Shown here one piece after another: positions 21,962 to 39,172 of a stretch of 64,000 nt of DNA. The stretch is taken from the NCBI GenBank assembly GCA_964417675.1, contig CAYQJL010000018.1, forward strand, positions 16,760-80,759, written 5' to 3'. How positions within the stretch are numbered: the stretch's first letter is position 1; every line of letters begins with the position of its first letter. Below the pieces are notes generated by a model. That model ran no database searches. It saw only the letters and a list, made by a program, of their open reading frames with translations, and was not told where the DNA came from. A program made the position numbers and the translations under genes. This stretch comes from an uncultured bacterium (lineage in GTDB: Bacteria; Eisenbacteria; RBG-16-71-46; CAIMUX01; WJJG01).

Positions 21962-22140
21962 GGCTCCTCCTCCACGCCGTCCGGCCGTCCGAACGGCCCA
22001 TGCGCGGCCGGCTGGCTGGCCGTCCAGATGGCCCGTGTGCGCGTGGCCATTGGCCGTCCATATGGCCCATGTGCGACCGGCTGGCCGGCGGAACGGCCCA
22101 TCTGCGACCGACTGGCCGGCCGAATGGCTCGTGGGCCTTC
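21962..22140. repeat. intergenic degenerate tandem repeats (about 5 copies of a ~33-bp unit GGCCGTCCAGATGGCCCATGTGCGACCGGCTGGCC)
   Basis: Direct repeats between the rpsA stop and the start of the membrane operon. Confidence 0.8.
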
Positions 22141-22323
22141 CTTCGGTGCCGCCAGTGGCAGGACATGCCGCCCCCTACACTCGAGAACACCCATCCGGCA
22201 TTGCCCTGGATCGACGGATCGACTAGTCTGCTGCCCATGCGCCTGTTTCGCGAAGGCCACGGCGGTGACACCAGATCCCGCCGCGACGGATCTCACCCAA
22301 GAAAGCCGAAAGGGAGAAACGGA

Positions 22324-23610
22324 ATGAGGTCAGCTCTTCGGCCGTCCGTCGGTCGCGCTCCCCTCCCCGTCCCACCCCACACTCGCCGGCCGCATCTGCT
22401 GTCGCCCATGCTGGGCCTCGTCATGCTGGTCCTGCCGGGTGTGTGGCTGGGCCCGGCCGTGGCCCAGGACGCCGGTACGATGGACAGCGCTCCCGTTACC
22501 CCACCGGGCGACGTCGTCGCTCTGGATACCCCGAGCGATCGGGGACAGAGCATCACCGTGAGGTGGACCTGTCCAGCGGTGGACATTGGCCCCGGCGGCC
22601 CGGTCCTGGGGTATCGAATCGATCGAGCCACGACCCCACAGGGCCCCTTCGAGATGGTCGGGCAGGCCTCGCCGCTCGCGGGGCGCTATGACGATGTCGG
22701 CGCGCAAGACAGTGTCGAGTACTGGTACCAGGTGACGACGCTGGCTCTCGCGGGTGAGGCCTCATCCCCCCCGGTGGGGCCGGTGGTCGCGAAGCCGCAG
22801 TGGATCAACACGCGCCAGTGGAATGTCTTCCTGATCCTGGTCTTGCTCCTGGGTTTCAACATCTACTACATCGAGCACATCCGGGCCGGCGGCACCCCGT
22901 TCATCCGCAAGATCGCGGGGCTGGAGGCGGTCGCCGAGGCGGTCGGACGGGCCACGGAAATGGGCCGACCCATTCTCTTCGTGCCCGGCATTCAGGATAT
23001 GAACGATATCCAGACCGTCGCCGGAGTGACGATTCTGGGGCACATCGCCCGCACCGTGGCCGAATACGACTCGCGGCTGGTCGTTCCGACCAGTCGCGCA
23101 CTGGTCATGACCACCGCGCGCGAGACGGTCAAGGAGGCCTATCTCTCCGTCGGCCGGCCGGACTCCTACGACGAGAACTCGATCTACTACGTAACCGATG
23201 AGCAGTTCGGCTATGTAGCCGGGGTCAACGGCTACATGGTCCGGGAAAAACCGGCCACCTGCTTCTACATGGGCGCCTTCTTCGCGGAAAGCCTGATTCT
23301 CTCGGAAACCGGCAACTCGATCGGTGCGATCCAGGTGGCCGGGACCGCCATGCCCGCACAGCTGCCCTTCTTCGTGGCGTCCTGTGATTACACCTTGATC
23401 GGCGAGGAGCTCTTCGCCGCCAGCGCCTACCTGTCGGGGGAGCCCAAGCAACTCGGCAGCATCAAGGGACAGGATGTCGGCAAGTTGATCGGCATGATCT
23501 CGATCGTGGCGGGCGTCATCATCCTGACCTTGGCGGCCGTCACCGGTGTGGAGTTCATTCAAACCCTCGGGGACTGGGTACGCGCGTTCTGGTCCACCTC
23601 TTTGGCGTAA
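22324..23610 (+). CDS. uncharacterised membrane protein: signal peptide, FN3/Ig-like domain, TM, ~270-aa domain, C-terminal TM; paralogous core shared with the gene at 24345
   Basis: AAGGGAGAAA RBS. Region VAGTAMPAQLPFFVASCDYTLIGEELFAASAYLSGEP aligns with AGGCTAVQAPLMYPYYPDQMVGLMGGIKAGAEYEQLL of the third gene. Confidence 0.65.
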   Translation: MRSALRPSVGRAPLPVPPHTRRPHLLSPMLGLVMLVLPGVWLGPAVAQDAGTMDSAPVTPPGDVVALDTPSDRGQSITVRWTCPAVDIGPGGPVLGYRIDRATTPQGPFEMVGQASPLAGRYDDVGAQDSVEYWYQVTTLALAGEASSPPVGPVVAKPQWINTRQWNVFLILVLLLGFNIYYIEHIRAGGTPFIRKIAGLEAVAEAVGRATEMGRPILFVPGIQDMNDIQTVAGVTILGHIARTVAEYDSRLVVPTSRALVMTTARETVKEAYLSVGRPDSYDENSIYYVTDEQFGYVAGVNGYMVREKPATCFYMGAFFAESLILSETGNSIGAIQVAGTAMPAQLPFFVASCDYTLIGEELFAASAYLSGEPKQLGSIKGQDVGKLIGMISIVAGVIILTLAAVTGVEFIQTLGDWVRAFWSTSLA

Positions 23611-23622
23611 GGAGCATCGATC

Positions 23623-24306
23623 ATGAGGCGAACGGTTCCACTATTGATCACCGCCATCGTAGGCGGTGTGCTCGTGATCGCATATTTCATCCCGCATCCG
23701 CCCTTCGACGGCCTGCGGGAGGATTTCAGCATCTTCTTCGACATCATCGCCGCGGTCGCCTTCATCCTCGGGGGCGGCAACCTGATCAAGATGCACGGCA
23801 ACCGCATCAGCCGCCGGGAGAAGGGGTTCTTCTACAGCCTCGTCACGGTGGCCAGCTTCGTCATCGTCCTACTCATCGGGCTCCTGAAACTCGGCAATCC
23901 GGGAGGGTTCGGCAGCGGCACCTCGGTGGTCACCGAGGGCTCGGCCTTCCACTACGCCTACCAGTATGTCTTCCGGCCCTGCGCCGCAACGATGTTCGCG
24001 CTCCTGGCCTTCTATGTCGCCTCGGCCTCGTTCCGGGCCTTTCGGGCGAAGAACGCCGAGGCCACGATCCTCCTGCTGGTGGCCTTCACGATTCTCCTGG
24101 GACGCACCTTCGTAGGCGCGCTGGCGACGAGCTGGCTGCCGGACTCGTTGTACTTCCTCAAGATCCCCTATCTGGCCGACAAGATCATGGTCGTCCTGAA
24201 CTTCGCCGGCAATCGCGCCATCATGATCGGCATCGCGCTGGGAATCATCTCGACATCGCTGAAGGTCATCATCGGCATCGACCGGTCATACCTGGGCTCG
24301 GACTAG
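23623..24306 (+). CDS. polytopic membrane protein (5-6 TM), unknown function
   Basis: 13-bp spacing from the upstream gene. Hydrophobic helices throughout. Confidence 0.65.
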   Translation: MRRTVPLLITAIVGGVLVIAYFIPHPPFDGLREDFSIFFDIIAAVAFILGGGNLIKMHGNRISRREKGFFYSLVTVASFVIVLLIGLLKLGNPGGFGSGTSVVTEGSAFHYAYQYVFRPCAATMFALLAFYVASASFRAFRAKNAEATILLLVAFTILLGRTFVGALATSWLPDSLYFLKIPYLADKIMVVLNFAGNRAIMIGIALGIISTSLKVIIGIDRSYLGSD

Positions 24307-24344
24307 GGAGCAACCAAGGTGGCTCGGACTAAGGAGGAACCAAG

Positions 24345-25229
24345 GTGAGCAACGGGAACCTGGTCGAGAAGATCAACGAACTCGACAAACGCTGGGTTTT
24401 CCTCGCCATCGGCCTGGCCGTGGTGATCTCAACGGCCTTCGGCCTGACCTTCCCGGAGATTCCCACCCCCATGGTCAAGGCCATCTTCGACAAGGTCGAA
24501 AGCCTCCCGCGGGGATCGCGGGTGTTGCTGCCGTTCGACTACGATCCGGGGAGTGAGCCGGAGCTGCAACCGATGGCCGAGGCGTTCGTGCGCCATTGCG
24601 CCGAGCGCGGACTGAAGATGTACTTCATCGCCCTCTGGCCGCTGGGCCAACAGATGGTCGAGGGGGTCACCAATCGTTTGATCCAGATCGAGTATCCCGA
24701 TCTGGAGTATGGACAGGATTACATGGACTTCGGCTACAAGAGCGGGAACGAGGGCGTCATCGCCGTCATCCTGACCGATCTGCGCAAGCTCTATACGACC
24801 GATGCCCACGGCACTTCGATCGGCCGGGTCCCGATGATGCAAGGCATCACGAGCATCCGTGGATTCGACCTGATCCTGAATGTCAGCGCCGGATACCCCG
24901 GCATGAAGGAGTGGATCCAGTACGCCGGCACGCCCGGAAACATTCCGGTCGCCGGGGGCTGTACGGCCGTCCAGGCGCCGCTGATGTATCCCTACTATCC
25001 GGATCAGATGGTCGGGCTCATGGGCGGCATCAAGGCCGGCGCCGAATACGAGCAGCTCCTGATCGAGAAGTATCCGGAGTTTGCCGAAGACAAGCGTCGC
25101 TACACGACCGCCCTGATACGGATGGGCCCGCAGACGGTCACACATCTGGCGATCATCTTCTTCATCATCGTAGGCAACGTCACCTACCAGATCCTGCGCC
25201 GCAGACAAAATCTGCAGGGTCTGAAGTAG
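24345..25229 (+). CDS. bitopic membrane protein (N- and C-terminal TM flanking a ~230-aa extracytoplasmic domain), paralog of the first gene's core
   Basis: AGGAGG-type RBS. Architecture resembles GldG-like ABC-transporter auxiliary proteins. Unverified. Confidence 0.65.
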   Translation: MSNGNLVEKINELDKRWVFLAIGLAVVISTAFGLTFPEIPTPMVKAIFDKVESLPRGSRVLLPFDYDPGSEPELQPMAEAFVRHCAERGLKMYFIALWPLGQQMVEGVTNRLIQIEYPDLEYGQDYMDFGYKSGNEGVIAVILTDLRKLYTTDAHGTSIGRVPMMQGITSIRGFDLILNVSAGYPGMKEWIQYAGTPGNIPVAGGCTAVQAPLMYPYYPDQMVGLMGGIKAGAEYEQLLIEKYPEFAEDKRRYTTALIRMGPQTVTHLAIIFFIIVGNVTYQILRRRQNLQGLK

Positions 25230-25344
25230 AGGTCGCAAATCCGAGAGGCATGGGGGCACAGAGGTCTGGCCACGAGTGCCCGAGTGGAGAGCGGAGGGCC
25301 CATCGCCGCTGCGCGGGCCGGGATGATAGGACGAGGAGCCTGAC

Positions 25345-26142
25345 ATGAAGCGGATCATTTGGCTGGGGATTCTGGGCGTCACGACCCTGATCCTGATCGT
25401 GCGGACCATCGGCGGCGACATGCCCAATCCGTTCGGGTCGGCCGATGGGTTTGGGATCTGGCTGGCCGCCTGCTTGACGCTGGCGATCCTGAGTTTCCTC
25501 TACAATGACAATCCTCTCTACAAGTTCGCCGAACATCTCTTCGTGGGGGTCTCGGCGGCCTACTGGATGGTGATGGGTTTCTGGTCCACCCTGGTGCCCA
25601 ACCTGTTCGGCAAGCTGGCGCCGGAGACGACCGCCAAGATCTTCCTTCCCGGCATCGCCGGAACCGAGCGGGATCCACTCTGGTTCATGTATTTCATTCC
25701 CCTGATCTTCGGAGTCCTCTTACTGTTGAGGCTCTCGCCCAAGGGCGGCCACCTGTCGCGGTGGGCCTTGGCCTTCATTCTGGGAACGACGGCCGGATTG
25801 CGCCTGATCGCATTCCTGACCGCGGACTTCATGGGGCAGATTGGCTCGACCCTGAAGTCGGTCGCCGGTCTGACACCCGCGCTCCTGCCCGGCGGCCAGC
25901 CGACCTTCAGCTTCGAGGCGATGTTCTGGGATTTCATCGCGGTCATCGCAATCATGGCGGCGCTCTGCTACTTCTATTTCTCGAAGGCGCACACCGGGCT
26001 GTTCGGCAGGTTCTCCCGCCTCGGCATCTGGGTCTTGATGGTCACCTTCGGGGCCGGTTTTGGCTACACGGTCATGGGGCGTATCGCGCTGCTCGTGGGC
26101 CGGGTCGAGTTCCTGTTGGTGGAGTGGCTGCAGGTACTGTGA
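25345..26142 (+). CDS. polytopic membrane protein (6-7 TM), unknown function
   Basis: GGAG RBS. Last gene of a four-gene co-directional cluster. Confidence 0.65.
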   Translation: MKRIIWLGILGVTTLILIVRTIGGDMPNPFGSADGFGIWLAACLTLAILSFLYNDNPLYKFAEHLFVGVSAAYWMVMGFWSTLVPNLFGKLAPETTAKIFLPGIAGTERDPLWFMYFIPLIFGVLLLLRLSPKGGHLSRWALAFILGTTAGLRLIAFLTADFMGQIGSTLKSVAGLTPALLPGGQPTFSFEAMFWDFIAVIAIMAALCYFYFSKAHTGLFGRFSRLGIWVLMVTFGAGFGYTVMGRIALLVGRVEFLLVEWLQVL

Positions 26143-26985: not shown

Positions 26986-27204
26986 ACATTCACCACAGAG
27001 ACGATTGCCAGCTCGCCGATCCTCCCATCTTCTCTACGAGATCCGGCCCGCCTCTCTTCTGCCGATCGACAGGCCGCTCGCACAAAGGAAGGCTCACCCG
27101 AGCCACTGCCTCGCCTCCTCCCGCCGGTTTCTCTCCCGCCAGTCTCCGCTGGCCGGTCTCTCTACCGCTAGTCTCCGCCCGCGCGGATCCGGCCCCCAGA
27201 CTTC

Positions 27205-27771
27205 CTACTCCCCAACATCAAGGCAGGCCTGGCCCCGTAAGAACGTCCGGGCCCGGGCCAGACATGTGGCGACCGATCCGAGCGGCATGCCCAGGGACAT
27301 CGCAATCTCGGCATCCTTGAGGCCGGCCACATGCAGAAGCATGCAGACGCGGTCCTTGGGCCTCGGGATCTGCTCGATTCCGGCGGCCAGGCGCTCGACC
27401 TTCAGTCCATCATCGGCGCGCAACCGGCTGGGCGGCTCCGCTATGGAAACCAGATCCACTTCCTGCGCGCGGCGGCGGTTCGAGGCGCTCTTGAGCCAAT
27501 CCAACCAGTGGCGCACCGCGACGGTCTTCAGGAAGGTCTTCAGGGGGGCCCGGCTGGGCTCATACTGGCGCAAGACCCTGAACTCATCCCGGAGGAGCTT
27601 CTCCATATAACTCTGGAGAAGATCCTTGAGATCCTCTTCATTCGGAACCCGGCTGCGATACACGGGAAGAACGATCCGCAGCGCCGCCCGCGCAAACGCA
27701 TCGGCTTGCTCCGGCCGGCCGGCCAGGATGCCTCTCCACAGGCGCAGCCACTCCCGGTCGTCAATCGCCAT
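27205..27771 (-). CDS. ECF (group IV) RNA polymerase sigma factor
   Basis: Sigma-2 region (LLQSYMEKLLRDEF...) and sigma-4 HTH (KDRVCMLLHVAGLKDAEIAMSLGMPLGSVATCLARAR). The start overlaps the upstream gene's stop by 11 nt. Confidence 0.85.
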   Translation of the reverse strand: MAIDDREWLRLWRGILAGRPEQADAFARAALRIVLPVYRSRVPNEEDLKDLLQSYMEKLLRDEFRVLRQYEPSRAPLKTFLKTVAVRHWLDWLKSASNRRRAQEVDLVSIAEPPSRLRADDGLKVERLAAGIEQIPRPKDRVCMLLHVAGLKDAEIAMSLGMPLGSVATCLARARTFLRGQACLDVGE

Positions 27772-30064
27772 CGTTTCCCCGATCCCCGAACTCCGCATCC
27801 ATGATGATGGTGTCTCTACTGTAGAGGGATGCGCGGATATCCTCCTCGAACCGCTCCATCGCATCCGCTGGTAGCGAACCACTCTGCCGCAGCGCCCGCA
27901 CCCGGTGGCGAAAACTCTGGGCGAAGGTCACGTCAAGGACGGCGGCGGGGAGTCCCAGGGTGAGAATGATCGAGCATCCGGCCGCATTCATGGCCGCCAC
28001 GGTCTGAATCAATACCCGGTCGTTGCTGTCCGGCCCCGCGGACAGCTCGAAGAGTCCCAGCTGCTCGAAGGGGTTGTCGGGAACCTCCTCCATCCATGGG
28101 CGCAGCGGAAGGACGATGTGGCGGTAGCAGGGTTGCGCGCCGGGATCGAAAGAAAGCTCCTCGGTGCCATAGCGCGATGGTGGTTGCAGCTCGGCAGCCC
28201 CGTGAACGGTGTAGAAGTCCTCCACCTTGAGCACCAGCAGGCTCATCCCGCGGGTGGGGCCATGAAACCCCAGGGCGATGATCTCGCTACGGCCGTCGCC
28301 GTCCAGATCCCTGGCCGCCAGGTGCTCCAGATGGCCCGGATGTTCCAGCGACCGCTCGTGGTTGAAATCCTCGTCCAGGATCTGCAGCGCACAGCGCGCG
28401 GTCGGATTGAAAGTGATCGAGATCACGAGCTCCTGGTTGCCGTCCCCGTCCACATCCGCCACGAGACCTCGCTTCACGTTGTACAGATTGGCGGAGGTCT
28501 CGCGCACCGGAGCGTTCGGCAGCCAGGTCGAGACCGGCTGATACTTCGCCACCACTTGCCGGGTGGGAATGTGCAGGAGCATGACCCGCCCGTCTTTCCC
28601 ATCCTCGAAGTCTATGCTCTCGCCGAGCACCAGATAGGGACCCGGCCCCTTGAATCGCCCCACCTCCGGCACCAGCAAGGCAAATGCATATCGGCGCCCC
28701 TTCTCCGGCGTGAAATGCAGGTCCGCCATGCGCGGCACCCGCAACTGAAATCCGGCGCTGATGTGGCCGGGTGTGCTCACCTGCGCCAACTCCGGCGGCG
28801 GCCGCCAGAGGGGAAACCAGTACACTCCGATCTCATCGAGAAGACGCGGCGAGAGAAGCACCAGCCCCAATAGCATGATCGCCAGTATGCCGGCCGCGGC
28901 GAACCTCTGCAGCCGGGGCCGGCGGCAGGCCGCCAGGATCGCCGCCGGCACCTCGAGCGGGCACAGCAGCTGCGGGCGTTGAAACAGCTCGCGCAGGGTA
29001 CCGACCGTGTGGATCTCGCCCTCCCAGGCGATCTCGGCGGCAACCCGGCAGGCAAGATCCCCCTGGGTACGCGCCACGACAATGCCCGATAGGCCGGCCG
29101 CGCGCGCAACCTGAACCTTGGCCCGCAGCGAATCCGCGTCAACGTCCTGGACCTCCCCACTCGGGGAGAGCAGACCGGTCCAGGCCAGATCCGGCCGTGG
29201 CATCAGGCCGCGGCTGCGGCGCAGCAATCCGATCATGACGCCGCACATCGCGCTGCCCAACGCCAGCGAGACCGAACTGCCGGCCACCGGCATCTCCTTC
29301 TCGGGAAGGGAGAGCTCGAAGCCCAGGCGGTCGAGATCGATGCGGCCGAGCGCACGCCGGGACAACCCTTCGAGCGAACCGCCCGCGGCCGCGCACCGGC
29401 AGAGATCGTAGAGCGTATGACGCGCGATCATGCGGACATCGGCGGCCACATCTCCCAGGAGCCGGAGCCGATTGGAGCCACCCCCCAGGTTGGCATTGTT
29501 CCACACGACACGGGCATCCTGCGGTCCGAGCGCCCGCGCGGCCACTGTCACGGTGGTCAGGACGCCCAGATGGGGGACATCCGTCTCATGGGCGCCGGGC
29601 GGGAGCTCACAGACGAGCGGCACGGGCACCTGGATCAGAAAGGCACCATCGGCTCGCATCCCGGCCGGGGGCGCCGCGGAGGATGGCACAAGCCGCGCAA
29701 GGAGCGCAGCGACCTCCCCTTCCTCGATCTGCGCGTTTTCCCGGAGAAGGCCCAGGGCCTGCCGGAAAACGGCTGGCTCGGCCGAGTCCAAGGAGCAAGC
29801 CTGCGGTTCGCGCAGGGCGGCGACCAGGATCGCACCGGCCTCCTCCCAATAGGATGCGTACTCCCCGGCCGGGTTGGGAAGCGAGAGCAGGAAATTCGCG
29901 GCCGCCAGGGCCCGGGCCCGGGGCAGGCTGCACATCTGACAGAATGTGAGCAGGCGCTCGTAGGCGGCATCCACCTGATCGAAGCGATCCATCACGCTCC
30001 CAGCGCATCCGGAATCCACGGCCGCTACCGGCAGGGAACCATCACGGCATGGGTTGCATTCCAC
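27761..30064 (-). CDS. membrane protein with cytoplasmic Lon-like (S16) protease domain, single TM, and periplasmic FG-GAP/beta-propeller-like repeats
   Basis: ELSLPEKEMPVAGSSVSLALGSAMCGV...LAWTGLLSPSGEVQDVDADSLRAKVQVARAAGLSGIVVA aligns with Lon HVPEGATPKDGPSAGIAM...[36 protein letters not shown]. Ser and Lys dyad positions are conserved. TM AAAGILAIMLLGLVLL. C-terminal DVDGDGNQELVI and RDLDGDGRSEIIALG repeats. Confidence 0.6.
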   Translation of the reverse strand: MECNPCRDGSLPVAAVDSGCAGSVMDRFDQVDAAYERLLTFCQMCSLPRARALAAANFLLSLPNPAGEYASYWEEAGAILVAALREPQACSLDSAEPAVFRQALGLLRENAQIEEGEVAALLARLVPSSAAPPAGMRADGAFLIQVPVPLVCELPPGAHETDVPHLGVLTTVTVAARALGPQDARVVWNNANLGGGSNRLRLLGDVAADVRMIARHTLYDLCRCAAAGGSLEGLSRRALGRIDLDRLGFELSLPEKEMPVAGSSVSLALGSAMCGVMIGLLRRSRGLMPRPDLAWTGLLSPSGEVQDVDADSLRAKVQVARAAGLSGIVVARTQGDLACRVAAEIAWEGEIHTVGTLRELFQRPQLLCPLEVPAAILAACRRPRLQRFAAAGILAIMLLGLVLLSPRLLDEIGVYWFPLWRPPPELAQVSTPGHISAGFQLRVPRMADLHFTPEKGRRYAFALLVPEVGRFKGPGPYLVLGESIDFEDGKDGRVMLLHIPTRQVVAKYQPVSTWLPNAPVRETSANLYNVKRGLVADVDGDGNQELVISITFNPTARCALQILDEDFNHERSLEHPGHLEHLAARDLDGDGRSEIIALGFHGPTRGMSLLVLKVEDFYTVHGAAELQPPSRYGTEELSFDPGAQPCYRHIVLPLRPWMEEVPDNPFEQLGLFELSAGPDSNDRVLIQTVAAMNAAGCSIILTLGLPAAVLDVTFAQSFRHRVRALRQSGSLPADAMERFEEDIRASLYSRDTIIMDAEFGDRGNDGD

Positions 30065-30177: not shown

Positions 30178-31650
30178 TCATGGGTTGATCGGCCGCTTGG
30201 GTATCGCCGCCAGAAACTGAATCAGCTCCTCCACGCGCCGGCTCCATCCGGCCTGCCGGGCCAGCGCCAGCCGCTGTTGCACCTTGTTCTCCGACGGCGC
30301 CTCCGCCAGGCACGCGCGGATGGCGACTTCCAGCTCGTCCTGCGTGGCATACAGGTAGATGCAGTCCCGGTACGCCTTGAGCACACGACGGAAGGATGCC
30401 GCGATGGGCCGGCCGGTCGCGAGGTACTCGTATAGATTCAACCCCCGGACCGCCTCCAGGTGCGGCTCACGCCGGAGAGGCAAGATGAGGGCATCCGACG
30501 CGCCGACGATTTCGGCGGCCCGTTCCGGGCGCAGTGCCCCCAGGGGACGGATGCGCTCCGCGGGCAACCGCTGCAGGAGGGGAAGGCCGTCGGGACGAAC
30601 CTGCCCGACGAAGACAAAGAGCGGTTCAGGAACCGCCGCCATCATCGAGAGCAGATCTTCGTAAGAAATGCGGGCGTCCACATGCCCAAGGAAGGTGACC
30701 ATCGGACGCTCGGCGGGAATCTCCAACTCGCGCCGCAGGGCCTCGGCCCGCTCCTTGACGGTCGGATGGAAGAGGTCCAGATCGACCCCATGTTCAATGA
30801 CCGTCCGGGGGGCATCCGCGGCCAGATAACGGTCCCAGGATTCGATCATGTAGCGATGGTTCGCAATCATCCCGTCAGCACTCGGCAAGGCAACGCTCAG
30901 AGCCTCCCGATAGGCCTCGATGGCCGACCGCGAGGTGACCTGGGCCTCGAAATCCTCGCTGCAGTCGATGACCACCGGCACATTCGCCGCATTCTTGATG
31001 AACGGCACGAGCGCCGGGTGATCGCAATAGATGATCTCGGCCGCGAACGTCTCGCGCCCGGCACGGGCGCCCTTGCCCTGAACAATCTCCGAGGAAGGGC
31101 CGCCGACCAGGCGAACCACTTCCCGGCGGGCCATCTCCCCCCACAGCGCCCAGGCCTCCTTCAGCGTGGCGGCGTGGCGCACCTCGTCCGACTCGGGCAA
31201 CTCCCTCCGCCGCAGGTTCGTGGGGAGATCCACACCCCCCACGGCCTGCGCGAACGCCCCGTTGGATGGAGTCACCGGTGCGAACTCCGAGGAGCCGGCC
31301 GGGGGCGTGTCGGCCGGAGCCATGCCGGCCGGAGGCGTGTCGGCCGGAGCCATGCCGGCCGGAGGCGTGTCGGACGGAGCCATGCCGGCCGGAGGCGTGT
31401 CGGCCGGGGGCGTGTCGGCCGGAGCCATGCCGGCCGGGGGCGTGTCGGTTGCGGGTCTGTCGGCCGGAAGGGCGTCCCCCTGGGAAGGCGCTGCGGAGGC
31501 GAAGCGATCCGGTTCGTAGGCAGACCGGTAGGCGCTGGTCGGAGCCAGATACAGCACGTCATGTCCCTGGCGGGCCAGTCCGATCGCAAGCTGTTGCGGC
31601 CGGTGGCGCAGTCCGGCAAAGGGCGTATCCGTGACCATCAGAACCCGCAT
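30178..31650 (-). CDS. family 4 glycosyltransferase with an inserted Pro/Ala/Asp/Thr tandem-repeat low-complexity region
   Basis: GT4 N-terminus MRVLMVTDTPFAG...GHDVLYLAP. About 6 copies of PAGMAPADTP, from a 24-bp DNA repeat at about 31300-31450. GT-B C-terminal domain. Confidence 0.8.
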   Translation of the reverse strand: MRVLMVTDTPFAGLRHRPQQLAIGLARQGHDVLYLAPTSAYRSAYEPDRFASAAPSQGDALPADRPATDTPPAGMAPADTPPADTPPAGMAPSDTPPAGMAPADTPPAGMAPADTPPAGSSEFAPVTPSNGAFAQAVGGVDLPTNLRRRELPESDEVRHAATLKEAWALWGEMARREVVRLVGGPSSEIVQGKGARAGRETFAAEIIYCDHPALVPFIKNAANVPVVIDCSEDFEAQVTSRSAIEAYREALSVALPSADGMIANHRYMIESWDRYLAADAPRTVIEHGVDLDLFHPTVKERAEALRRELEIPAERPMVTFLGHVDARISYEDLLSMMAAVPEPLFVFVGQVRPDGLPLLQRLPAERIRPLGALRPERAAEIVGASDALILPLRREPHLEAVRGLNLYEYLATGRPIAASFRRVLKAYRDCIYLYATQDELEVAIRACLAEAPSENKVQQRLALARQAGWSRRVEELIQFLAAIPKRPINP

Positions 31651-31841
31651 CGCGATCCTCCCTGTTTGCGGCGAGCCCACCCCAAACGCGCTCGACCAAG
31701 GAAGCGATGATGGGACAACTTCCTGCCCTGGTCCAGGATGTTCTGGCGGCCGGCCCCCTTCGAGACGATCGCACGATCATGGAACAGGTCCGCCGTCGGC
31801 GGACGCCCAACGCACCAGGAAGGCAGGCATGCAGCAGGGGG

Positions 31842-31930
31842 AGGCGCGGCCTGAGCCACCGGGCGGGAACGCGGCCTGAGGCAACGGGCGGGAACGCGGC
31901 CTGAGCCACCGGGCGGGAACGTGGCCCAAG
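31842..31930. repeat. intergenic tandem repeat, 3 copies of a ~30-bp unit GGCCTGAGCCACCGGGCGGGAACGC
   Basis: Direct repeats between the GT4 start and the stop of the repeat-protein gene. Confidence 0.8.
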
Positions 31931-32002
31931 GGGACCGGGGGGCGAGATCCGGCCTGTCGCACAGAGGAGCCGACGCGTGTTTGGCAAGCGGGGATCACAC
32001 CA

Positions 32003-33892
32003 CTAGGGTCGCCCGACTCGTTCCAGAAGCGTCACGCCCCAGAGATGGCTTTCGTGCGGAGCATCCGCGTTCCAGTCACCGAACGAGTGGGAACCGTCGG
32101 TCTGGTAGCAGAGCGAGTACTCTCCCGGCTCGAGGATCATCAGCCGCTCGGCGCGCCGGTTCTTCTTGGCGCCCCCCGCATGCCGGGTATCTTCGTACAG
32201 CATCTCCCACACCTTCTGGCCAGTGTCGCTGCGCTCCAACCACCCGAAGTCGTGCATCTTGCCGGCCGACCCCTCGCCCAGGGCGATGATCTGAACCGCT
32301 GTGGGTTCCTTGACGCTGAATGCCACCCGGCGGCTGGCACTGTCCCCCAGGGGCGCCAGCTGGATCAAGGTGACCGGTCCTTCGCCCGGGCCTAGCCGGC
32401 GCACCGATTCCGGAGAGAAGTCCTCTCCCATGCCGCGCAGCGAGATCCCCCATGCGGCCGGATCATAGGGCGCTTCCTTGGACCAGCCATCCGCTGAATG
32501 GGCGTAGTCGGACACATAGCACAGGTAGTAGTCGCCCGGGGACAGACGCAGCTGTTCCTGGACCCTCCGATTGCGGGCCTCGCCGCCGGCATAGACGCCG
32601 CGCTCATAGCGCATCGACCACAGCGTCTCCAGGCTGACCGCATCCTCGATCCACCCGTAGTCGAGCCCCTCACTCTCGTTGAATGACCACTCGCCCTGCG
32701 CACTCACACAGATGTCCATGGGCTGGCGCACCGAGAAGCCAACGCGATGGAACTCGGCATCGCCCACCCGTTCGATCGCCAGGAAGCGATTCTCATCCGG
32801 CGGGTCAAGGCGCACGGCAACGGCGGAGGCCGGCAGGGGCTGCACCGGGGTCAAGCTGATCCCCCAGGACTCAGGATCGTAGGGCGGCTGCATGTTCCAA
32901 CGATCGTAGGCATGCGTTTCGTCGGTCGCATAGCAGACCAGATAGCGGCCGGCCTTCAGGGTAACCTCACTGTCGAAGACACGGTTCTTCTTGGCGCCAC
33001 CGGCGGGCTCGGTATTGGTCAGGGTCATCTCCCAGATGCGGCCGCACCCGTCGCGGTCTTCGATCCAGGCCCCGTCGGCAAAGGCCTGTTCCCGCGCCCA
33101 GTACTCCCCGGTGGCCAGGATCCGAAGGCGGGCATCCTGTTGCAGGACAAGCTCCGCCTGTAGCAACTGGTTGGAGGGAACGCGGCGGAAGGAGAGGATC
33201 TCGTTGCTCTCCACCGGGCGGGCGGGCGAGCAGAACGCGGTCGGTGGGAAGGTCGCATCGGCGGCCCGGATCGAAACACGCCACTCCTTGTGGTCTCCAT
33301 ACCGATCCCACGGCACCATGACGCCGCCACGGATATCGACCCGGCCCAGCTCGAAGAGCTTCAGGAACTTGATCTTCTTCTTCAGGGGGAAGGACCCCCC
33401 ATGAGCACTGAAGTACAGGGCGTAGTTGCCAGCGGGCAGACGCATGCGCCGGCGGGCCTCGACATTGTCACCGCGCAGCGACTCGACTTCCTCAATGGTC
33501 ATTTCCCAAACGACGCGCCGGGTATCGAGATCGATCAGCCAGGGATAGCTGAAGAGGAAGCCATCCTCCTGCGAGCCGGCGGCCACGGCTTCGATGTCCA
33601 CCTCGGTGTCGCGATCGAGCGTGAAGGACTCTCGATAGAGACCCTCCCCGGGAATCGACTTGATCGCGGCGATCACCGGTCCCTTGGCCGCGGCGGAGTC
33701 GACGCCGCCGGCCAGCATGGCGACCAGGGCGGCCAGGGCCGCCAGGGTGACAATGCCCCCCCGTTTCACCCGTCGATCGGGTACCCGGATGCGTGAAGAT
33801 CCCACTGTGATCACCTCGCTTCCATTCGAGATTGCGCCCGAAACCGCCGCCGCTCGTCCAACCCGAGGGAATCCTCCTCCCCGCCTGGCCAT
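32003..33892 (-). CDS. secreted protein with four ~140-aa internal repeats, unknown family
   Basis: Signal peptide IVTLAALAALVAMLAGG. Each repeat carries GWIED...VWEM...AGGAKKNR...G(Y/R)Y(L/S)(V/L)CY...D.SH...W...P(Y/H)(D/E)...WG(I/V)(S/T)L. Confidence 0.65.
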   Translation of the reverse strand: MARRGGGFPRVGRAAAVSGAISNGSEVITVGSSRIRVPDRRVKRGGIVTLAALAALVAMLAGGVDSAAAKGPVIAAIKSIPGEGLYRESFTLDRDTEVDIEAVAAGSQEDGFLFSYPWLIDLDTRRVVWEMTIEEVESLRGDNVEARRRMRLPAGNYALYFSAHGGSFPLKKKIKFLKLFELGRVDIRGGVMVPWDRYGDHKEWRVSIRAADATFPPTAFCSPARPVESNEILSFRRVPSNQLLQAELVLQQDARLRILATGEYWAREQAFADGAWIEDRDGCGRIWEMTLTNTEPAGGAKKNRVFDSEVTLKAGRYLVCYATDETHAYDRWNMQPPYDPESWGISLTPVQPLPASAVAVRLDPPDENRFLAIERVGDAEFHRVGFSVRQPMDICVSAQGEWSFNESEGLDYGWIEDAVSLETLWSMRYERGVYAGGEARNRRVQEQLRLSPGDYYLCYVSDYAHSADGWSKEAPYDPAAWGISLRGMGEDFSPESVRRLGPGEGPVTLIQLAPLGDSASRRVAFSVKEPTAVQIIALGEGSAGKMHDFGWLERSDTGQKVWEMLYEDTRHAGGAKKNRRAERLMILEPGEYSLCYQTDGSHSFGDWNADAPHESHLWGVTLLERVGRP

Positions 33893-33916
33893 CCCTACCA
33901 GCCCAGTACGCCCCCG

Positions 33917-34813
33917 TCACCCGCAAGTTGCGTCGCCCCCGCGATGCGTCAGGCCTCCCGAGCCGGCCCGGAGGGTCTCCAGTGCTTCGTACGGGCAACC
34001 ATCTGGCCTCCCAATTCCTTCCAAGCAAATCAGTTCCCTGCGCCGGCCCCGCTGGCGCCCGGTCAGATCCGCTACATCGACCAACACACCTCGTTCGCAG
34101 TGCAGGCACCGCTCGGGTTGTCCCTCCAGCCGCACGGCGCCCACCCGATCGAGCAGCGCCTGCTCCCAGATCAGAGGCGCCTGACCGCCACGATCCTCGA
34201 TGTGGATCCTGCGCGGCCGGGCCACGACCAACCGCCCGCGGTCGAGGGCAAGCTCTCCCTCGGCCTCGAGGCGATCCCCCTCGGCCAGGCGCAGCCGCTG
34301 CTGCTGTCCGCTGCTGAGGCGCAGGAAGATCGGATCGGCGAACCCCTGCCGGCCCGCGAAGGAAGGACACAGCCGCGCCAGGAAGCCGAGCAGACGAAGG
34401 CGGCTGCGCCGGCCGTCCTCCTCACGGACCAGGCGTGGACGAACCGCGCTCACCGTGCCGCCCACTTCCAGAATGCGTCCCTGCTGGTCTTCCAGCCACT
34501 CGTCGAAGATACGGCATTCCTCCAGGAAGGCGCGGTACTGCTCCTCGCTGACCTGAAGCTCGGGCAGGCGCTGGATCTTCTCCTCCTCGTAGAAGCGGCA
34601 ATGGTTGCAGTTGTTGCCCACGTGCTTGTAGCCCTTCGGGCAGGCGCCCCCCTTGCCGAGCCGCTGGCACTTCCAGCGAAAGTCCAGGCAGCCCTCCGGG
34701 AAGCACTCCTTCTCCCTGAGGACGTGATAGGCGGAAACCAGATGGCCAAACCCGCGATGTGACTCGTGCCGGCAGAGGAAGATGTCTTCCCGCTTGTACG
34801 GATTGCGCATCAT
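33917..34813 (-). CDS. Cys/His-rich hypothetical protein (probable metal-binding)
   Basis: N-terminus CRHESHRGFGH...HVLREKECFPEGC...CQRLGKGGACPKGYKHVGNNCNHCRF and C-terminus CLHCERG...ICLEGIGRPDGCP. 25 bp upstream of the repeat-protein gene, same strand. Confidence 0.55.
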   Translation of the reverse strand: MMRNPYKREDIFLCRHESHRGFGHLVSAYHVLREKECFPEGCLDFRWKCQRLGKGGACPKGYKHVGNNCNHCRFYEEEKIQRLPELQVSEEQYRAFLEECRIFDEWLEDQQGRILEVGGTVSAVRPRLVREEDGRRSRLRLLGFLARLCPSFAGRQGFADPIFLRLSSGQQQRLRLAEGDRLEAEGELALDRGRLVVARPRRIHIEDRGGQAPLIWEQALLDRVGAVRLEGQPERCLHCERGVLVDVADLTGRQRGRRRELICLEGIGRPDGCPYEALETLRAGSGGLTHRGGDATCG

Positions 34814-35130
34814 GGCGTCTGCCCCCCAGGTTCGACTACCCCCTCCCGGTTGCCGGGATCCTCCATTCTAGAACGTTTGGGCCGCGATGCCAGCCCGCGG
34901 TTCGGCGCCGGGATCCCGCCCCGTGATCGGCCGCTTTGCTCCGGGGCGCACGCCGGCGTGTTGATTCACGCGCCCGGACGGTGGTCGTGGTGGACGGGGC
35001 TCGGCCGCATCCAGTATCCTTCCCTGTTTCCCGCGTCGTTGCCCGGCGTTGCTCTCGATGGGCGGAAGAGAACGCACGCAGCCGGCGGCGATCAGAGTCG
35101 AATCGACCGGAAGCAAATGCAGGAGGAGCC

Positions 35131-36336
35131 ATGCCGGACCAGGCTTTCGCCGGCCGAGAGGCCAAGGCGGATCTGAAGGTTGTCATGCACAGGGGAGGCC
35201 CGCCGGAGAACGAGATCGTGATCCAGAGTTCAGCCCAACGGCTGTTCGGCGATCGCATTCGTGAGGTCGCCAGACAGACGCTGGCCACGCTGGGCATCAC
35301 GGACACCCGCGTGGAACTCTTCGATCAAGCGGCCTTCGATTGGGTCATCATGGCGCGATTGGAAACCGCGGCCAAGCGTCTCTATCCCGACCTGAACGGT
35401 GAAGCGCTCCCGGAGTGGGGCGGCGATCCCAAGCCCACCGGACGGGACCGCATGCGCCGCTCGCGCCTCTACCTGCCCGGCAACAATCCGGATCTGATGT
35501 TCAACGCCGGGCTCTTCGGCCCCGACGGCGTGATTCTCGACCTGGAAGACTCGGTGGCGCCCGCCGAGAAGGATGCCGCCCGGATCCTGGTGCGCAATGC
35601 TCTGCGGGCCGTCGACTTCGGCGACGCCGAGCGGATGGTGCGCATCAATCCGGCGCCGGAAGGCATGAAGGATCTGCCGGCGATCATTGCGCAGCGGCCC
35701 AACATGATCCTGCTCCCCAAGGCTGAGCAGGCCTCCGACATCTCCGAAACCGTCAATGCGATCAGTCAGATTGCGACGCGCCACAAAATTCAGGATCCGG
35801 TCTGGATCATGCCCATCCTGGAGACGGCCAAAGGCGTGTGGAATGCCTACGCCATCGGTACGGCCTCCGACCAGGTCGCCGCCCTGGCGTTTGGCGCCGA
35901 GGATTTCACCCGTGATGTACAAGCCGCCCGCACCGTCGAGGGCCGCGAGAGCTTCACGGCCCGCTCAATGGTGGTTCTGGGCGCCCGCGCCGCCGGCCTG
36001 CAGCCGATCGACACGGTCTTCTCCGATGTCGAGGATGAGGCCGGGCTGCTCTCATCTGTGAAAGAGGCCATCTCGCTCGGATTCGAGGGCAAGGGCTGCA
36101 TTCATCCACGCCAGATCGCTGTGATTCACCAGGCCTTCCGGCCGACGGACGAAGACATCCGGCACGCGCTCAACGTCAAGGCCGCCATGGAGGAGGCCGA
36201 GCGGACCGGCTCGGGGGTCATCAGCCTGGGTTCGAAGATGGTGGATCCGCCGGTCGTCGCGCGCGCCCTGCGTGTGCTGCGCGTGGCCGAGGAGATGGGC
36301 ATCGATGTGCGCGCCTTGGCGCCGGAGGGGGTGTAG
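35131..36336 (+). CDS. citDE: citrate lyase gamma (acyl carrier) - beta (citryl-CoA lyase) fusion protein
   Basis: AGGAGGAG RBS. N-terminal ~95 aa matches CitD ACP (LKVVMHRGG...EIVIQSSAQRLFGDRIREV...AAFDWVIMARLETAAKR). The remainder is the HpcH/CitE fold (RRSRLYLPGNNPDLMFNAGLFGPDGVILDLEDSV). Confidence 0.78.
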   Translation: MPDQAFAGREAKADLKVVMHRGGPPENEIVIQSSAQRLFGDRIREVARQTLATLGITDTRVELFDQAAFDWVIMARLETAAKRLYPDLNGEALPEWGGDPKPTGRDRMRRSRLYLPGNNPDLMFNAGLFGPDGVILDLEDSVAPAEKDAARILVRNALRAVDFGDAERMVRINPAPEGMKDLPAIIAQRPNMILLPKAEQASDISETVNAISQIATRHKIQDPVWIMPILETAKGVWNAYAIGTASDQVAALAFGAEDFTRDVQAARTVEGRESFTARSMVVLGARAAGLQPIDTVFSDVEDEAGLLSSVKEAISLGFEGKGCIHPRQIAVIHQAFRPTDEDIRHALNVKAAMEEAERTGSGVISLGSKMVDPPVVARALRVLRVAEEMGIDVRALAPEGV

Positions 36337-36338
36337 TC

Positions 36339-37898
36339 ATGGCAAAGATGGTCAAGAACGCCGTGGGACGTCTCGTACCGACCGAGGCCAACGGGAAGCA
36401 GCAAGTGCCCTTCCAGGGCGTGGGGCAGTACGATCCGCAGGGGCGCAAGGCGGCCCCTCCGCTGCGGGCCTGCCATCAATACGGACTCGACAAGCGCGTG
36501 CCCGATCTGAAGGCGGCCATCGAGAAGGTGGGGTTGCGCGACGGGATGACCGTCGGCATGCATCACCATATGCGCAACGGCGACATGGTGGCGGTGCCGT
36601 TCTTTGAGGCCGTTGCGGAGCTGGGCATCAAGGATATCGTCTTCATGCCCTCGGCCGCCTTCCCCTGCCACGAACCGCTGATCCAGCATCTCGAAAGCGG
36701 CGTCATCCATCACATCGAAGGATCGATGAACGGCCCGATCGGCAAGTTCGCCAGCGAGGGCCGCATGCGCGGCCTGGGCGTGCTGCGCTCGCACGGGGGC
36801 CGCTACCAGGCGATCCAGGATGGCGAGGTGCATGTCGATGTGGGGCTCATTCCGGCCCCGGCGGCCGACGTGCTGGGCAACGCCACCGGAGCCTACGGGC
36901 CTTCGGCGTGCGGCTCGCTGGGGTTCGCGCTCGCGGATTCCCAGTATGCGGACCAGGTCATAGTGGTGACCGATCATCTCGTCGAGGTCCCCTGCCTCCC
37001 GTGGGAGATCCAGGGCATGAACGTCGACGTGGTCGTCGAGATGGAGAAGATCGGCGACCCGAGCAAGATCGTATCGGGTACGACGCAGCTGACCAAGAGC
37101 CCGACCCGCCTGCTGATCGCCCAGTACGTGGCCGACTTCATCGAGGCGGCCGGCTACCTGGGCAAGCCGTTTCAGGCCGGCGCCGGCGGCATTTCGCTGG
37201 CCTCGCTGATCTTCATCGCCCAGCGGATGCGCGAGAAGGGCCTGCGAGCCCCCTTCGCCCGCGGCGGTTCGACCCAGGTGCTGGTCGATATGCTGAACGA
37301 GGGCTTGATCGGCGCGATCCTGGACGGTCAGACCTTCGACCTGGCCGGGGTCAAGTCGATCGGCGAGCATCCCCGTCACGTGCCCACCACGCCCTTCACG
37401 AGCTACAACTATCATGGCAAGGGCAACTGGGCACCCTACGTCTCGACCGCTGTCCTGGGAGCGACCGAGGTCGACATCAACTTCCAGGCCAACGTGGTAT
37501 CCCATTCCGATGGCTACCTGTTGCATGGGATCGGCGGATGGCAGAACACGCTGTTTGGGGAGTGCTCGATCCTGGCCTTCCCGCTCTTCCGGGGCCGCAT
37601 CCCGATCGTGATGAAGGAGGTCACGACTGTCTGCGCGCCGGGCGAGATGATCGGCGCCGTCATCACCGAGCGCGGCATCGCGGTCAATCCCAGGCACAAG
37701 AACGGCCCCGCGATCCTCGACCGACTCAAGGGCACGAAACTGCCCCTGACGACCATCGAGGAGCTCTACGAGATCGGCCAGCGGATGTGCGGCAGCCCGC
37801 AGCCGGCCGATATCGACCGCAACCATCCGATCGCCATCATCAAGTGGGTCGACGGCACGGTGATCGACACGGTGTATAAGGTGAACTATGCGCGATAG
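36339..37898 (+). CDS. citF: citrate lyase alpha subunit (citrate CoA-transferase)
   Basis: Full-length CitF-like sequence. Starts 3 bp after the citDE stop. Confidence 0.9.
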   Translation: MAKMVKNAVGRLVPTEANGKQQVPFQGVGQYDPQGRKAAPPLRACHQYGLDKRVPDLKAAIEKVGLRDGMTVGMHHHMRNGDMVAVPFFEAVAELGIKDIVFMPSAAFPCHEPLIQHLESGVIHHIEGSMNGPIGKFASEGRMRGLGVLRSHGGRYQAIQDGEVHVDVGLIPAPAADVLGNATGAYGPSACGSLGFALADSQYADQVIVVTDHLVEVPCLPWEIQGMNVDVVVEMEKIGDPSKIVSGTTQLTKSPTRLLIAQYVADFIEAAGYLGKPFQAGAGGISLASLIFIAQRMREKGLRAPFARGGSTQVLVDMLNEGLIGAILDGQTFDLAGVKSIGEHPRHVPTTPFTSYNYHGKGNWAPYVSTAVLGATEVDINFQANVVSHSDGYLLHGIGGWQNTLFGECSILAFPLFRGRIPIVMKEVTTVCAPGEMIGAVITERGIAVNPRHKNGPAILDRLKGTKLPLTTIEELYEIGQRMCGSPQPADIDRNHPIAIIKWVDGTVIDTVYKVNYAR

Positions 37899-37975: not shown

Positions 37976-39115
37976 GTGCCACGGTTCGAACGATTCTGTT
38001 CCATGGTGGCTGACTGCCAGGCGGCGAGCAAGCCCTGGCAACGGGCCTTGGAGCGGGGCAGGCCGGGCCGAGACCTGCCGGGCCGAGACCTGCCGGGTCC
38101 GGGCAGCAGACAGGCTCGATCCCTTGACATCAGTATCCTGGGTGCAGGCTTCGCGCGCGCCGGCATCCTGGGTGCAGGCTTCGCCCGCGCCGGCATCCTG
38201 GGCGCGTGTCTGCTGGGTGCCTGTCTCGTGGGCGGGTGCGACCCCGATCAAGCCTCGGAGACGCCGCTCTCCTATGCAGACGAGATCGAAGCGTGGCACG
38301 CCGACCGGGTGGAGGCGTTGCGCTCCCCCACGGGATGGCTCTCCCTGATCGGGCTTCACCCGCTCGAGGCCGGCGCGCGGCGGGTTGGATCCGGTCCCCG
38401 GGCTGACATTCGACTGCCCGACCCTGCACCGGCGGAAGTGGGCATGTTCACCGTCGGCAAGGATCGGATCGCTTTCGCCGCCCATCCCTCCGCCAGGGTC
38501 GTGCTGTACGCCACCGACGACCTGGGCCGGGAAGCGACCCTTCCAACGCGTGGACTCCCCATCGTCACGGATGCGGGCGGCGACCCCACCGTTCTGGGTG
38601 TCGGTACCTTGCGCTTCCATGTCATCGAACGCGGCCGGGACCGGTTCGTGCGGGTCAAGGATACGGCCAGCAAACGGCTGGAGCAATTCGACGGCATCGA
38701 GCGCTTCCCCGTCGATGAGTCCTGGCGGATCCAGGCCCGGTTGGTTCCCGCCGCAGGCGGTCAAACCGTGTCGATCACCAATTCGGTGGGACAGATCCAC
38801 GAGTCCCCGACCCCTGGCCATCTGGAGTTCGAGGCGGCCGGCACCGCTTGCCGCCTGACGCCCACCGGATCCCCGGGCGAGGCCCTGTTCATCGCCTTTG
38901 GCGACGCCAGCAACGGCGACGAAACCTACGGCGGCGGGCGTTTTCTGTCCGCGGCGGCACCCGATTCGAGTGGCGTGGTGCTTCTCGATTTCAATCGCGC
39001 CACCAATCCACCCTGTGTCTTCACGCCCTTCGCCACCTGCCCCCTGCCGCCGGCCGAGAACGTGCTACCGATCGCCGTCCGGGCCGGTGAGAAAACCTGG
39101 GCAGCCGGGCACTAG
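37976..39115 (+). CDS. DUF1684-family lipoprotein
   Basis: Lipobox LVGGC. C-terminal GEALFIAFGDASNGDETYGGGRFL...DFNRATNPPCVFTPFATCPLPPAEN is typical of DUF1684. Start uncertain; an N-terminal 30-bp duplication encodes ILGAGFARAG twice. Confidence 0.62.
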   Translation: MPRFERFCSMVADCQAASKPWQRALERGRPGRDLPGRDLPGPGSRQARSLDISILGAGFARAGILGAGFARAGILGACLLGACLVGGCDPDQASETPLSYADEIEAWHADRVEALRSPTGWLSLIGLHPLEAGARRVGSGPRADIRLPDPAPAEVGMFTVGKDRIAFAAHPSARVVLYATDDLGREATLPTRGLPIVTDAGGDPTVLGVGTLRFHVIERGRDRFVRVKDTASKRLEQFDGIERFPVDESWRIQARLVPAAGGQTVSITNSVGQIHESPTPGHLEFEAAGTACRLTPTGSPGEALFIAFGDASNGDETYGGGRFLSAAAPDSSGVVLLDFNRATNPPCVFTPFATCPLPPAENVLPIAVRAGEKTWAAGH

Positions 39116-39172
39116 GACGGGCACTAGGACGGGCACGAGGACGGGCACGAGGACGGGCACGAGGACCCGCCC
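39108..39172. repeat. tandem 12-bp repeat (GGGCACGAGGAC, about 5 copies) at and just after the DUF1684 stop
   Basis: ggcactaggacgggcactaggacgggcacgaggacgggcacgaggacgggcacgaggac. Confidence 0.85.

Follow-up and report, generated by a model that had tools for sequence, protein, structure and literature searches.

An unassigned family of putatively exported proteins with four predicted jelly-roll-type repeats, and its Cys/His-rich neighbour, in an uncultured Eisenbacteria genome

Background

The stretch of DNA analysed here (hereafter the window, 64,000 nucleotides (nt) of contig CAYQJL010000018.1, assembly GCA_964417675.1, from an uncultured Eisenbacteria representative) carries on its minus strand two adjacent genes which raise a simple question, namely whether they work together or are just neighbours. 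Gene A codes for a predicted secreted protein made of four repeats, and gene B, directly upstream, for a Cys/His-rich protein. A sequence-only reading of the window had presented both as a pair, possibly a new extracytoplasmic module, with a repeat in A that could not be assigned to a known family. The reading we favour, with confidence that is about evenly balanced, is that A is an exported binding protein built of jelly-roll repeats with three putative sites, and that B is a separate cytoplasmic neighbour and not its partner. The A+B module, which made this locus look special, is not upheld, and most of what had been said about A itself is.

Repeats, conservation, and export of protein A

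The 629-codon open reading frame (ORF) reported for A is present, and the database gene call starts further inside it to give 600 amino acids (aa; coordinates of all features are collected in Table 1). The GTG used in that call has a Shine-Dalgarno-like GAGGTG 7 nt before it. Both A and B show G+C values by codon position of the coding type, with third-position G+C (GC3) of 0.80–0.81 in a window of ~66% G+C; for gene A, GC3 is 0.80 vs. 0.49 at the second position.

Cutting the protein at the recurring W[ES]M and WG[IV][ST]L motifs yields four units, which are homologous repeats of ~125–160 aa. Their similarity, measured as local alignment scores and expressed as z values against shuffled controls, confirms the four tandem repeats described earlier and separates them into two types, repeats 2–4 being very close among themselves (z 33–35, identity 33–38%) and repeat 1 more distant from these three (z 8.5–15). 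The same separation appears in the conservation across 110 homologues from several phyla. Repeats 2, 3, and 4 have 24, 20, and 27 positions, respectively, that are at least 90% conserved, and these positions are equivalent from one repeat to the next; repeat 1 has seven, and retains the core residues only (F, W, R, W, L, G, Y). The signature VWEM/AGGAKKNR/LCY..D.SH..W/P.DP..WGISL that the sequence-only reading had picked out is found in repeats 2–4 and is conserved across the 110 homologues. Written in full, the shared set comprises G-E at a strand end, D-x-G-W-I, W-x-M, and A-G-G-x-x-K-N-R, followed by G-x-Y, (T/S)-D-x-S-H, and W-N-x-x-P-P-x-D-P-x-x-W-G. No Cys is conserved in any of the repeats.

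Protein A is predicted to be secreted, as had been proposed, from a hydrophobic signal sequence followed by an AxA-type cleavage motif, and its homologues look alike in this respect. The hydrophobicity of the signal sequence reaches a maximum of 2.67, the AlphaFold2 model (see below) places a helix at residues 17–33, and a similar N-terminus that closes with an AxA-like motif is seen in each of the 12 homologues that were aligned. A lipobox Cys is absent both from A and from these 12 proteins. Protein A has therefore the features expected for Sec export, i.e., a basic n-region, a hydrophobic core, an AxA motif, and no lipobox Cys. At the other end, all the aligned proteins of the family stop 6–10 residues past the WG(I/V)T motif of repeat 4, and no Pfam or NCBIfam match was found in A to the C-terminal sorting domain of type IX secretion system cargo, typical of the FCB group. 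Given the lack of both lipobox and C-terminal sorting domain, A is probably a periplasmic or envelope protein.

Sequence and fold searches with protein A

As far as sequence goes, the A repeat is without assignment to any described family. Nothing reached curated thresholds in Pfam or NCBIfam, either with the window protein or with homologues from other phyla, sequence and profile searches of the PDB came back empty, and a PADLOC scan gave no match. The Pfam models of CUB (PF00431) and PPC did not match A or any of 64 homologues, even when CUB was scanned to an E value of 1. Sub-threshold Pfam matches did appear in 10–27 of the 64 homologues, to the carbohydrate-binding module (CBM) family CBM48/AMPK1_CBM (PF16561), DUF5013 (PF16405), CopC (PF04234), and FAP42_B3 (PF22072). 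Membership in DUF5013, AMPK1_CBM, CopC, FAP42_B3, or X25 was rejected because almost all of these weak matches amount to 20–45 residues of an 'L-PG-Y---Y-TDGSH' hairpin and all of them fall below the cut-off. The earlier statement that the repeat belongs to no known family is thus borne out by searches that were negative or sub-threshold throughout.

The CopC matches bear on one alternative, that A binds or buffers metal in the periplasm, like CopC or as a Ca2+ store, each repeat holding one site for which the metal is the ligand itself. Ten of the 64 homologues have such matches, and the conserved carboxylates, His, and Met (of W-x-M) would be suited to metal coordination. However, the matches cover only 29–33 residues of that generic hairpin, always under the cut-off, and metal-resistance or transport genes are nowhere conserved near the A loci; we regard this alternative as very unlikely.

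The AlphaFold2 model of A, obtained with a 110-sequence alignment, has a mean predicted local distance difference test (pLDDT) of 91.7 and a predicted template modelling score (pTM) of 0.87, and consists of an N-terminal helix and four all-beta domains. Foldseek was run with full-length A. Against the PDB, it retrieved the CUB/discoidin region of neuropilin (E 1e-5), the CUB domains of MASP-2, C1r, and C1s, and enzymes containing CBM35, CBM32, or CBM51, with the multi-domain CUB and CBM entries matching at E values of 1e-5 to 1e-2. Among single-domain targets, a PPC domain (5sv5; probability 1.00, template modelling (TM) score to target 0.52), the collagen-binding domain of ColG (1nqj; 0.99 and 0.51), and the GOLD domain of p24 (5azx; 1.00 and 0.59) were found. 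A viral library gave only generic multi-domain PA14, discoidin (F5/8C), and CUB proteins, with TM scores of 0.2 or lower. These matches suggest that each repeat is a jelly-roll-type sandwich of the kind seen in binding modules. As modelled, the A repeat belongs to the jelly-roll fold class of CUB, PPC, GOLD, and CBM domains, which is a fold class and not a family; profile and structure searches with A end in fold-level beta-sandwich matches and no sequence family.

Far down the same Foldseek results there is a weak match to the copper enzyme PHM (rank 25, probability 0.57), in line with the idea that A could be an enzyme with three tandem active sites, in which the invariant E, D, D, S, H, K, N, and R would be catalytic residues or metal ligands and the substrate an envelope or environmental polymer. 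Such an enzyme would show invariant charged and His residues, as do all the functional repeats in the different phyla. Nevertheless, A matches no catalytic family in sequence or fold, the better structural matches are all to non-catalytic binding modules, and repetition in three or six identical copies is typical of binders that work by avidity and not of enzymes, which leaves this idea quite improbable.

Among the binding modules, CUB domains offer a site to compare with. Their Ca2+ site is formed by Glu45, Asp53, Asp98, and Ser100 in C1s numbering (PMC4222235), and the invariant E...(10)...D...(51)...D-x-S-H of repeats 2–4 has a similar spacing, but the two are not in register by hhalign. 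This comparison was made between a 39-sequence profile of the repeat and an alignment of CUB1 and CUB2 of C1s and MASP-1 (the C1s sequence is identical to 1NZI), and it gave a probability of 0.3% over 22 columns; the likeness to the Ca2+ site of CUB domains is kept only as a possible analogy. In addition, CUB domains have two conserved disulfides (four Cys), unlike the A repeats, which have none. With the low hhalign probability, the different register, and the lack of conserved Cys, CUB membership of A is unsupported. A metal site in the A repeats is a possibility.

Distribution and gene context of the A family

A word-indexed search with A returned 559 clusters, all of them unnamed 'hypothetical' proteins of about 560–650 aa, and the family is found at no fewer than 566 loci, each in a different species, among the GTDB species representatives. 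These are distributed over Candidatus Eisenbacteria, Zixibacteria, Ignavibacteria, Calditrichia, Bacteroidota (Cytophagia, Chitinophagaceae, and Rhodothermales), Gemmatimonadota, and Acidobacteriota, and include metagenome-assembled genomes assigned to Melioribacter roseus (Ignavibacteria) and Caldithrix. The closest named relatives of A, among the matches listed, are Eisenbacteria. Nearly all members have four repeats within 560–650 aa. One variant of 858 aa from an ENA metagenome (P0028) has six, the extra units being of the full-motif type. A family with this spread (at least 566 species-level genomes in about seven phyla), with conserved residues in triplicate and no relative in Pfam, NCBIfam, or the PDB, is a clear annotation gap and merits a family model of its own. 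Its presence in relatives of cultured Ignavibacteria and Calditrichia may also make its biochemistry feasible.

We have counted the gene neighbours of A at 85 loci. A DUF5686/Omp85 outer-membrane barrel gene (460–540 aa) adjoins A on the same strand at nine of them; it precedes A in Calditrichia and follows it in Ignavibacteria and Bacteroidota (examples are L001 8389–12559, L022, L043, L071, L056, L063, L066, and L083). In Calditrichia, the order is Omp85-A-DUF4097 with gaps of only 10–15 nt, and a DUF4097 gene follows A on the same strand at eight loci. A second context is the TldD plus PmbA/TldE metallopeptidase pair, found directly upstream of A and on the same strand at 11 loci in Zixibacteria (L018, L027, L030, L036, L047, and L073), Ignavibacteria (L023, L042, L046, and L076), and also L060, with gaps to A of ~200–260 bp that extend to ~900 bp in L018 and L030.

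The Omp85/DUF5686 and DUF4097 contexts point to a location of A at the envelope, and a functional link between A and the Omp85/DUF5686 barrel is possible; if it holds, it could lead to an envelope pathway of the FCB group that has so far not been characterised. The stronger form of this link is that A does not bind glycans at all and is a protein-protein adaptor for, or the substrate of, a dedicated DUF5686/Omp85 barrel, acting in surface display or outer-membrane biogenesis. The same-strand adjacency at nine of the 85 loci, which occurs in either gene order and in at least two phyla, and the tight Calditrichia operon (10–15 nt gaps) speak for it. On the other hand, there is no barrel gene nearby in ~90% of the A loci, including the one in this window. 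We consider it unlikely as it stands, although it is an alternative worth keeping in sight.

Protein B and its linkage to A

The same-strand gene just upstream of A had been noted for about 20 Cys/His, and the actual count in B is 14 Cys plus 9 His (23), including two CxHC motifs. Ten of the Cys are invariant in 46 B homologues, six of them in the N-terminal region and four near the C-terminus (positions in Table 1), and C14 and several His are nearly invariant. Neither a signal peptide nor any hydrophobic or membrane segment is present in B. Its AlphaFold2 model (pLDDT 90.1) begins with a small Cys/His domain and a long helix, continues with a beta-barrel at 114–207, and ends in a C-terminal CxxC...C...C unit that would be zinc-ribbon-like, judging by nothing else than its Cys pattern. 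By Foldseek, the barrel is a five-stranded oligonucleotide/oligosaccharide-binding (OB) fold, with PriB, SSB, and the N-terminal domains of AspRS and LysRS as matches (probability 0.97–0.99, TM-to-target 0.45–0.54). Pfam and NCBIfam gave no match for B, its 46 homologues, or variant architectures, the SSB, PriB, and tRNA_anti families included, and sequence and profile searches of the PDB found none either. When 1.84 billion representatives were searched exhaustively with a profile, 123 relatives came up, many of them fragments. From its model and its lack of a signal peptide, B is most likely a cytoplasmic protein that binds Zn or an Fe-S cluster and nucleic acid.

Four distant B homologues (41–46% identity) were inspected for their gene context. 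In two of the four, proS (prolyl-tRNA synthetase) is located 24 nt downstream of the B homologue on the same strand (L006 8001–10342 and L008 8001–10353); at the other two loci, the B homologue precedes an aminotransferase gene in one case and a Zn_ribbon_8 gene in the other. A consistent partnership of B with proS was rejected, as these two loci do not show it and proS is not in the window. The proS adjacency and the OB fold resembling that of aminoacyl-tRNA synthetases are hints of a role of B related to tRNA or translation.

The linkage of A and B is limited to a small group of genomes. Gene B adjoins A only in the window and in L007/L012, L010, and L011, all of them close Eisenbacteria with 47–58% identity in A. 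Among the best 80 A loci from species-representative genomes, three have an adjacent B and all are from close Eisenbacteria relatives. These loci share with the window a longer syntenic block, citF-citDE followed on the other strand by B-A-GT4-(three unnamed ORFs)-DUF6754. In the A loci of more distant Eisenbacteria (L016, L020, and L051) and in those of the other phyla there is no adjacent B, and A is near none of the four distant B loci. The sequence-only reading had proposed co-occurrence across genomes as the test of the pair and absence of linkage elsewhere as its refutation; with linkage found only in the closest Eisenbacteria, the proposal largely fails. The adjacency is best explained as gene order inherited within one Eisenbacteria clade, not as a shared mechanism.

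The alternative is that A and B are a two-gene functional module in which B would be a metal-binding partner, a maturation factor, or a regulator dedicated to A. The genes are on the same strand, the 24–111 nt that separate them contain no terminator-like site, their order has been kept in relatives at 47–63% identity, and 17 or more B clusters lie on contigs equal in size to those of A clusters. All this has to be set against an exported A and a B with no export signal, against a family of at least 566 species for A vs. 123 representatives for B among 1.84 billion proteins, against zero of four distant B loci with A and the A loci of L016, L020, and L051 with no adjacent B, and against a B-A adjacency that is embedded in a longer conserved block with citrate lyase, GT4, and DUF6754 genes. 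Since B has no export signal, the families differ so much in size, and the adjacency is restricted to one clade, the module is unsupported and we give it very little probability. Of the new extracytoplasmic module first suggested, the part that stands concerns A, which is predicted to be extracytoplasmic and whose beta-sandwich fits a binding role; B is predicted to be cytoplasmic and the pair does not make up one module.

Proposed roles of A and B

In the reading we prefer, A would be exported through a cleavable Sec signal peptide and would most likely stay in the periplasm or at the envelope. Its four jelly-roll-type beta-sandwich domains would have arisen by internal duplication. Domains 2, 3, and 4 each keep an invariant set of residues (acidic and basic ones, plus His, Asn, and Trp), which we infer from the strand order in the model to lie at one end of the sandwich, an end shared by the tip of the E/D hairpin and the AGG--KNR and D-x-S-H loops. 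This would create three equivalent putative ligand-binding sites, possibly metal-assisted, and turn A into a trivalent lectin-like or adaptor protein, with domain 1 having lost its site and playing probably a structural role. An envelope polymer or an outer-membrane protein partner seems the most plausible ligand. Protein B would most likely bind nucleic acid, its OB fold being placed between a Cys/His metal cluster at the N-terminus and a four-Cys knuckle at the C-terminus.

Several observations weigh against this proposal. The putative clustering of the conserved residues of A has been read from the strand topology of the model, the comparison with the CUB Ca2+ profile was negative, and the invariant E/D/D/H/K/N/R set would fit a catalytic site too. 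Moreover, the neighbours of A are mostly unconserved, the Omp85/DUF4097 and TldD/PmbA contexts account each for only ~10–13% of the A loci, and none of the Omp85/DUF5686, DUF4097, or TldD/PmbA genes is found in this window. Finally, the B-A order persists with short spacers at 47–63% protein identity, and a lineage-specific functional link between both proteins is possible.

A bolder version, to which we attach a low probability, goes further on three counts. The A repeat would define a new family of ligand-recognition domains, either convergent on the CUB, PPC, and FAP42-B sandwiches or related to them very distantly, and conserved across the FCB superphylum, Gemmatimonadota, and Acidobacteriota; A would be a general, so far unrecognised envelope component working with DUF5686/Omp85 barrels, e.g., as a receptor or adaptor in the periplasm that serves an envelope polymer or the assembly of the outer membrane; and B would be a new metal-cluster OB-fold nucleic-acid binder.

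Layout of the locus

The spacer between B and A is 111 nt long if counted to the GTG start of A and 24 nt if counted to the upstream ATG, and no terminator-like site was found in it; with a single promoter-like site, located upstream of B (Table 1), co-transcription of both genes is plausible. The flanks are those described before, a GT4 glycosyltransferase with a Pro-rich repeat on one side and a citD-citE fusion plus citF on the other. The public gene call of the fusion is 401 aa long, so the TTG at 34936 is probably not its true start; the fusion is kept in L007/L012 at 73–80% identity.

Table 1. Features of the A/B locus, in window coordinates.
Feature	Position	Strand	Description
ORF A	32003-33892	-	629 codons from ATG at 33892
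Gene A	32003..33805	-	600 aa from GTG at 33805; database gene call, 100% identity; stop codon 32003-32005
Signal peptide of A (predicted)	33686..33805	-	Basic n-region, hydrophobic stretch IVTLAALAALVAMLA, then AAA/K
Repeat 1	33209..33685	-	aa 70-228 of the 629-aa ORF; degenerate, ~25-aa beta-hairpin insertion
Repeat 2	32795..33208	-	aa 229-366; GE, D-AW-I, WEM, AGGAKKNR, G-Y, TD-TH, WN--PPYDP--WG
Repeat 3	32381..32794	-	aa 367-504; conserved residue set as in repeat 2
Repeat 4	32006..32380	-	aa 505-629; conserved residue set as in repeat 2; protein ends directly after
Gene B	33917..34813	-	298 aa, Cys/His-rich, directly upstream of A, no signal peptide
B N-terminal Cys/His-rich region	34574..34813	-	aa 1-80; C37, C42, C49, C58, C69, C72 invariant; C14, H19, H30, H64 nearly invariant
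B central OB-fold domain (predicted)	34193..34474	-	aa 114-207; from model strands and Foldseek
B C-terminal four-Cys cluster	33995..34108	-	C236-x2-C239 ... C263 ... C273, all invariant
Promoter-like site CTGGCA-17-TAGAAT	34865..34893	-	Consensus match only (1 site vs. 0.3 expected), ~50 nt ahead of B
Intergenic tandem repeat	31845..31926	.	25 bp x 3.3, GTTCCCGCCCGGTGGCTCAGGCCGC on minus strand; between A and GT4
GT4 glycosyltransferase	30178-31680	-	Downstream of A
citD-citE fusion	34936/35131-36336	+	Acyl-carrier (ACP) domain plus beta subunit of citrate lyase; upstream of B, opposite strand
citF	36339-37898	+	After the citD-citE fusion

An intergenic tandem repeat had been announced on each side of the pair. 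The one between A and GT4 is there, its 25-bp unit occurring in three copies at 31845–31926 and nowhere else in the window, and the one between B and citDE (34814–35130) was looked for and is not. No RNA families were found within 31600–35200. Other tandem repeats in the window are located at 27123–27178, 38062–38238, and 39106–39166. The related Eisenbacteria loci (L007, L009, L010, and L011) are rich in short intergenic tandem repeats too, with periods of 18–61 bp, two to six copies, and unrelated sequences. As these relatives carry different repeats, the one at 31845–31926 is probably not part of the A/B unit, and intergenic tandem repeats are probably a genome-wide habit of this lineage.

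Tandem repeats are also found inside genes. GT4 has an in-frame 15/30/45-bp tandem repeat at 31294–31468, in its N-terminal half and before the GT4 core, that codes for ~10 copies of a Pro-rich 'PADTPPAGMA'-like unit, and the GT4 of relatives has 43–47% identity in the core only. The gene of a DUF1684 protein (37976–39115, plus strand) contains tandem repeats of 15 and 30 bp where it codes for the N-terminal region (38062–38238) and a 12-bp repeat in five copies at its 3' end (39106–39166).

The minus strand carries, further downstream than GT4, a sigma-70 gene of the extracytoplasmic function type (27205–27882) and a gene for a 767-aa protein with FG-GAP repeats (27761–30064), whose ORFs overlap as listed; they lie outside the synteny block common with L010/L011 and may be a sigma/anti-sigma-like pair. 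A second conserved block of uncharacterised genes is located at 22000–26142 on the plus strand. In it, a DUF6754 protein precedes three unnamed ORFs of 227, 294, and 265 aa that Pfam does not match, and L010 and L011 keep the whole series in the same order at 68–81% identity.

Comparison with known systems

Some of the fold matches to A come from the Chlamydomonas ciliary C1 central apparatus. Its chains 7SQC_1A, 1B, and 1D are the most confident PDB matches to A by Foldseek probability (1.00) and reach the best TM scores of the full-length search (0.23–0.25 of the query), along ~385 columns that correspond to several consecutive sandwiches. FAP42_B3 (PF22072) gives weak matches in 11 of the 64 A homologues, with 13 bits vs. 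a cut-off of 27, a best E value of 0.0035, and a length of ~30 residues. FAP42 was considered as a candidate identity for the 7SQC chains. The 7SQC target is a eukaryotic intracellular axonemal protein with no function described for this domain, whereas A is an exported bacterial protein.

Protein B has its central OB barrel, the invariant Cys clusters around it, and a predicted cytoplasmic location in common with OB-fold nucleic-acid binders with zinc knuckles (PriB, SSB, and the N-terminal anticodon-binding domains of AspRS and LysRS). It differs from them in its N-terminal domain of six Cys plus His with no recognised counterpart, in the lack of any Pfam, NCBIfam, or PDB sequence match, and in a family restricted to 123 representatives.

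Protein A resembles the CUB, PPC, ColG, GOLD, and CBM35/32/51 modules, which, like its repeats, are all-beta sandwiches of ~110–140 aa that occur in tandem in exported proteins and have conserved polar residues at the loop end. The signature GE/D-GW/W-M/AGG--KNR/D-SH/WN--PP-DP--WG belongs to A and to none of the CUB, PPC, GOLD, or CBM families, and A would be an undescribed family within a familiar class, that of the tandem beta-sandwich binding modules.

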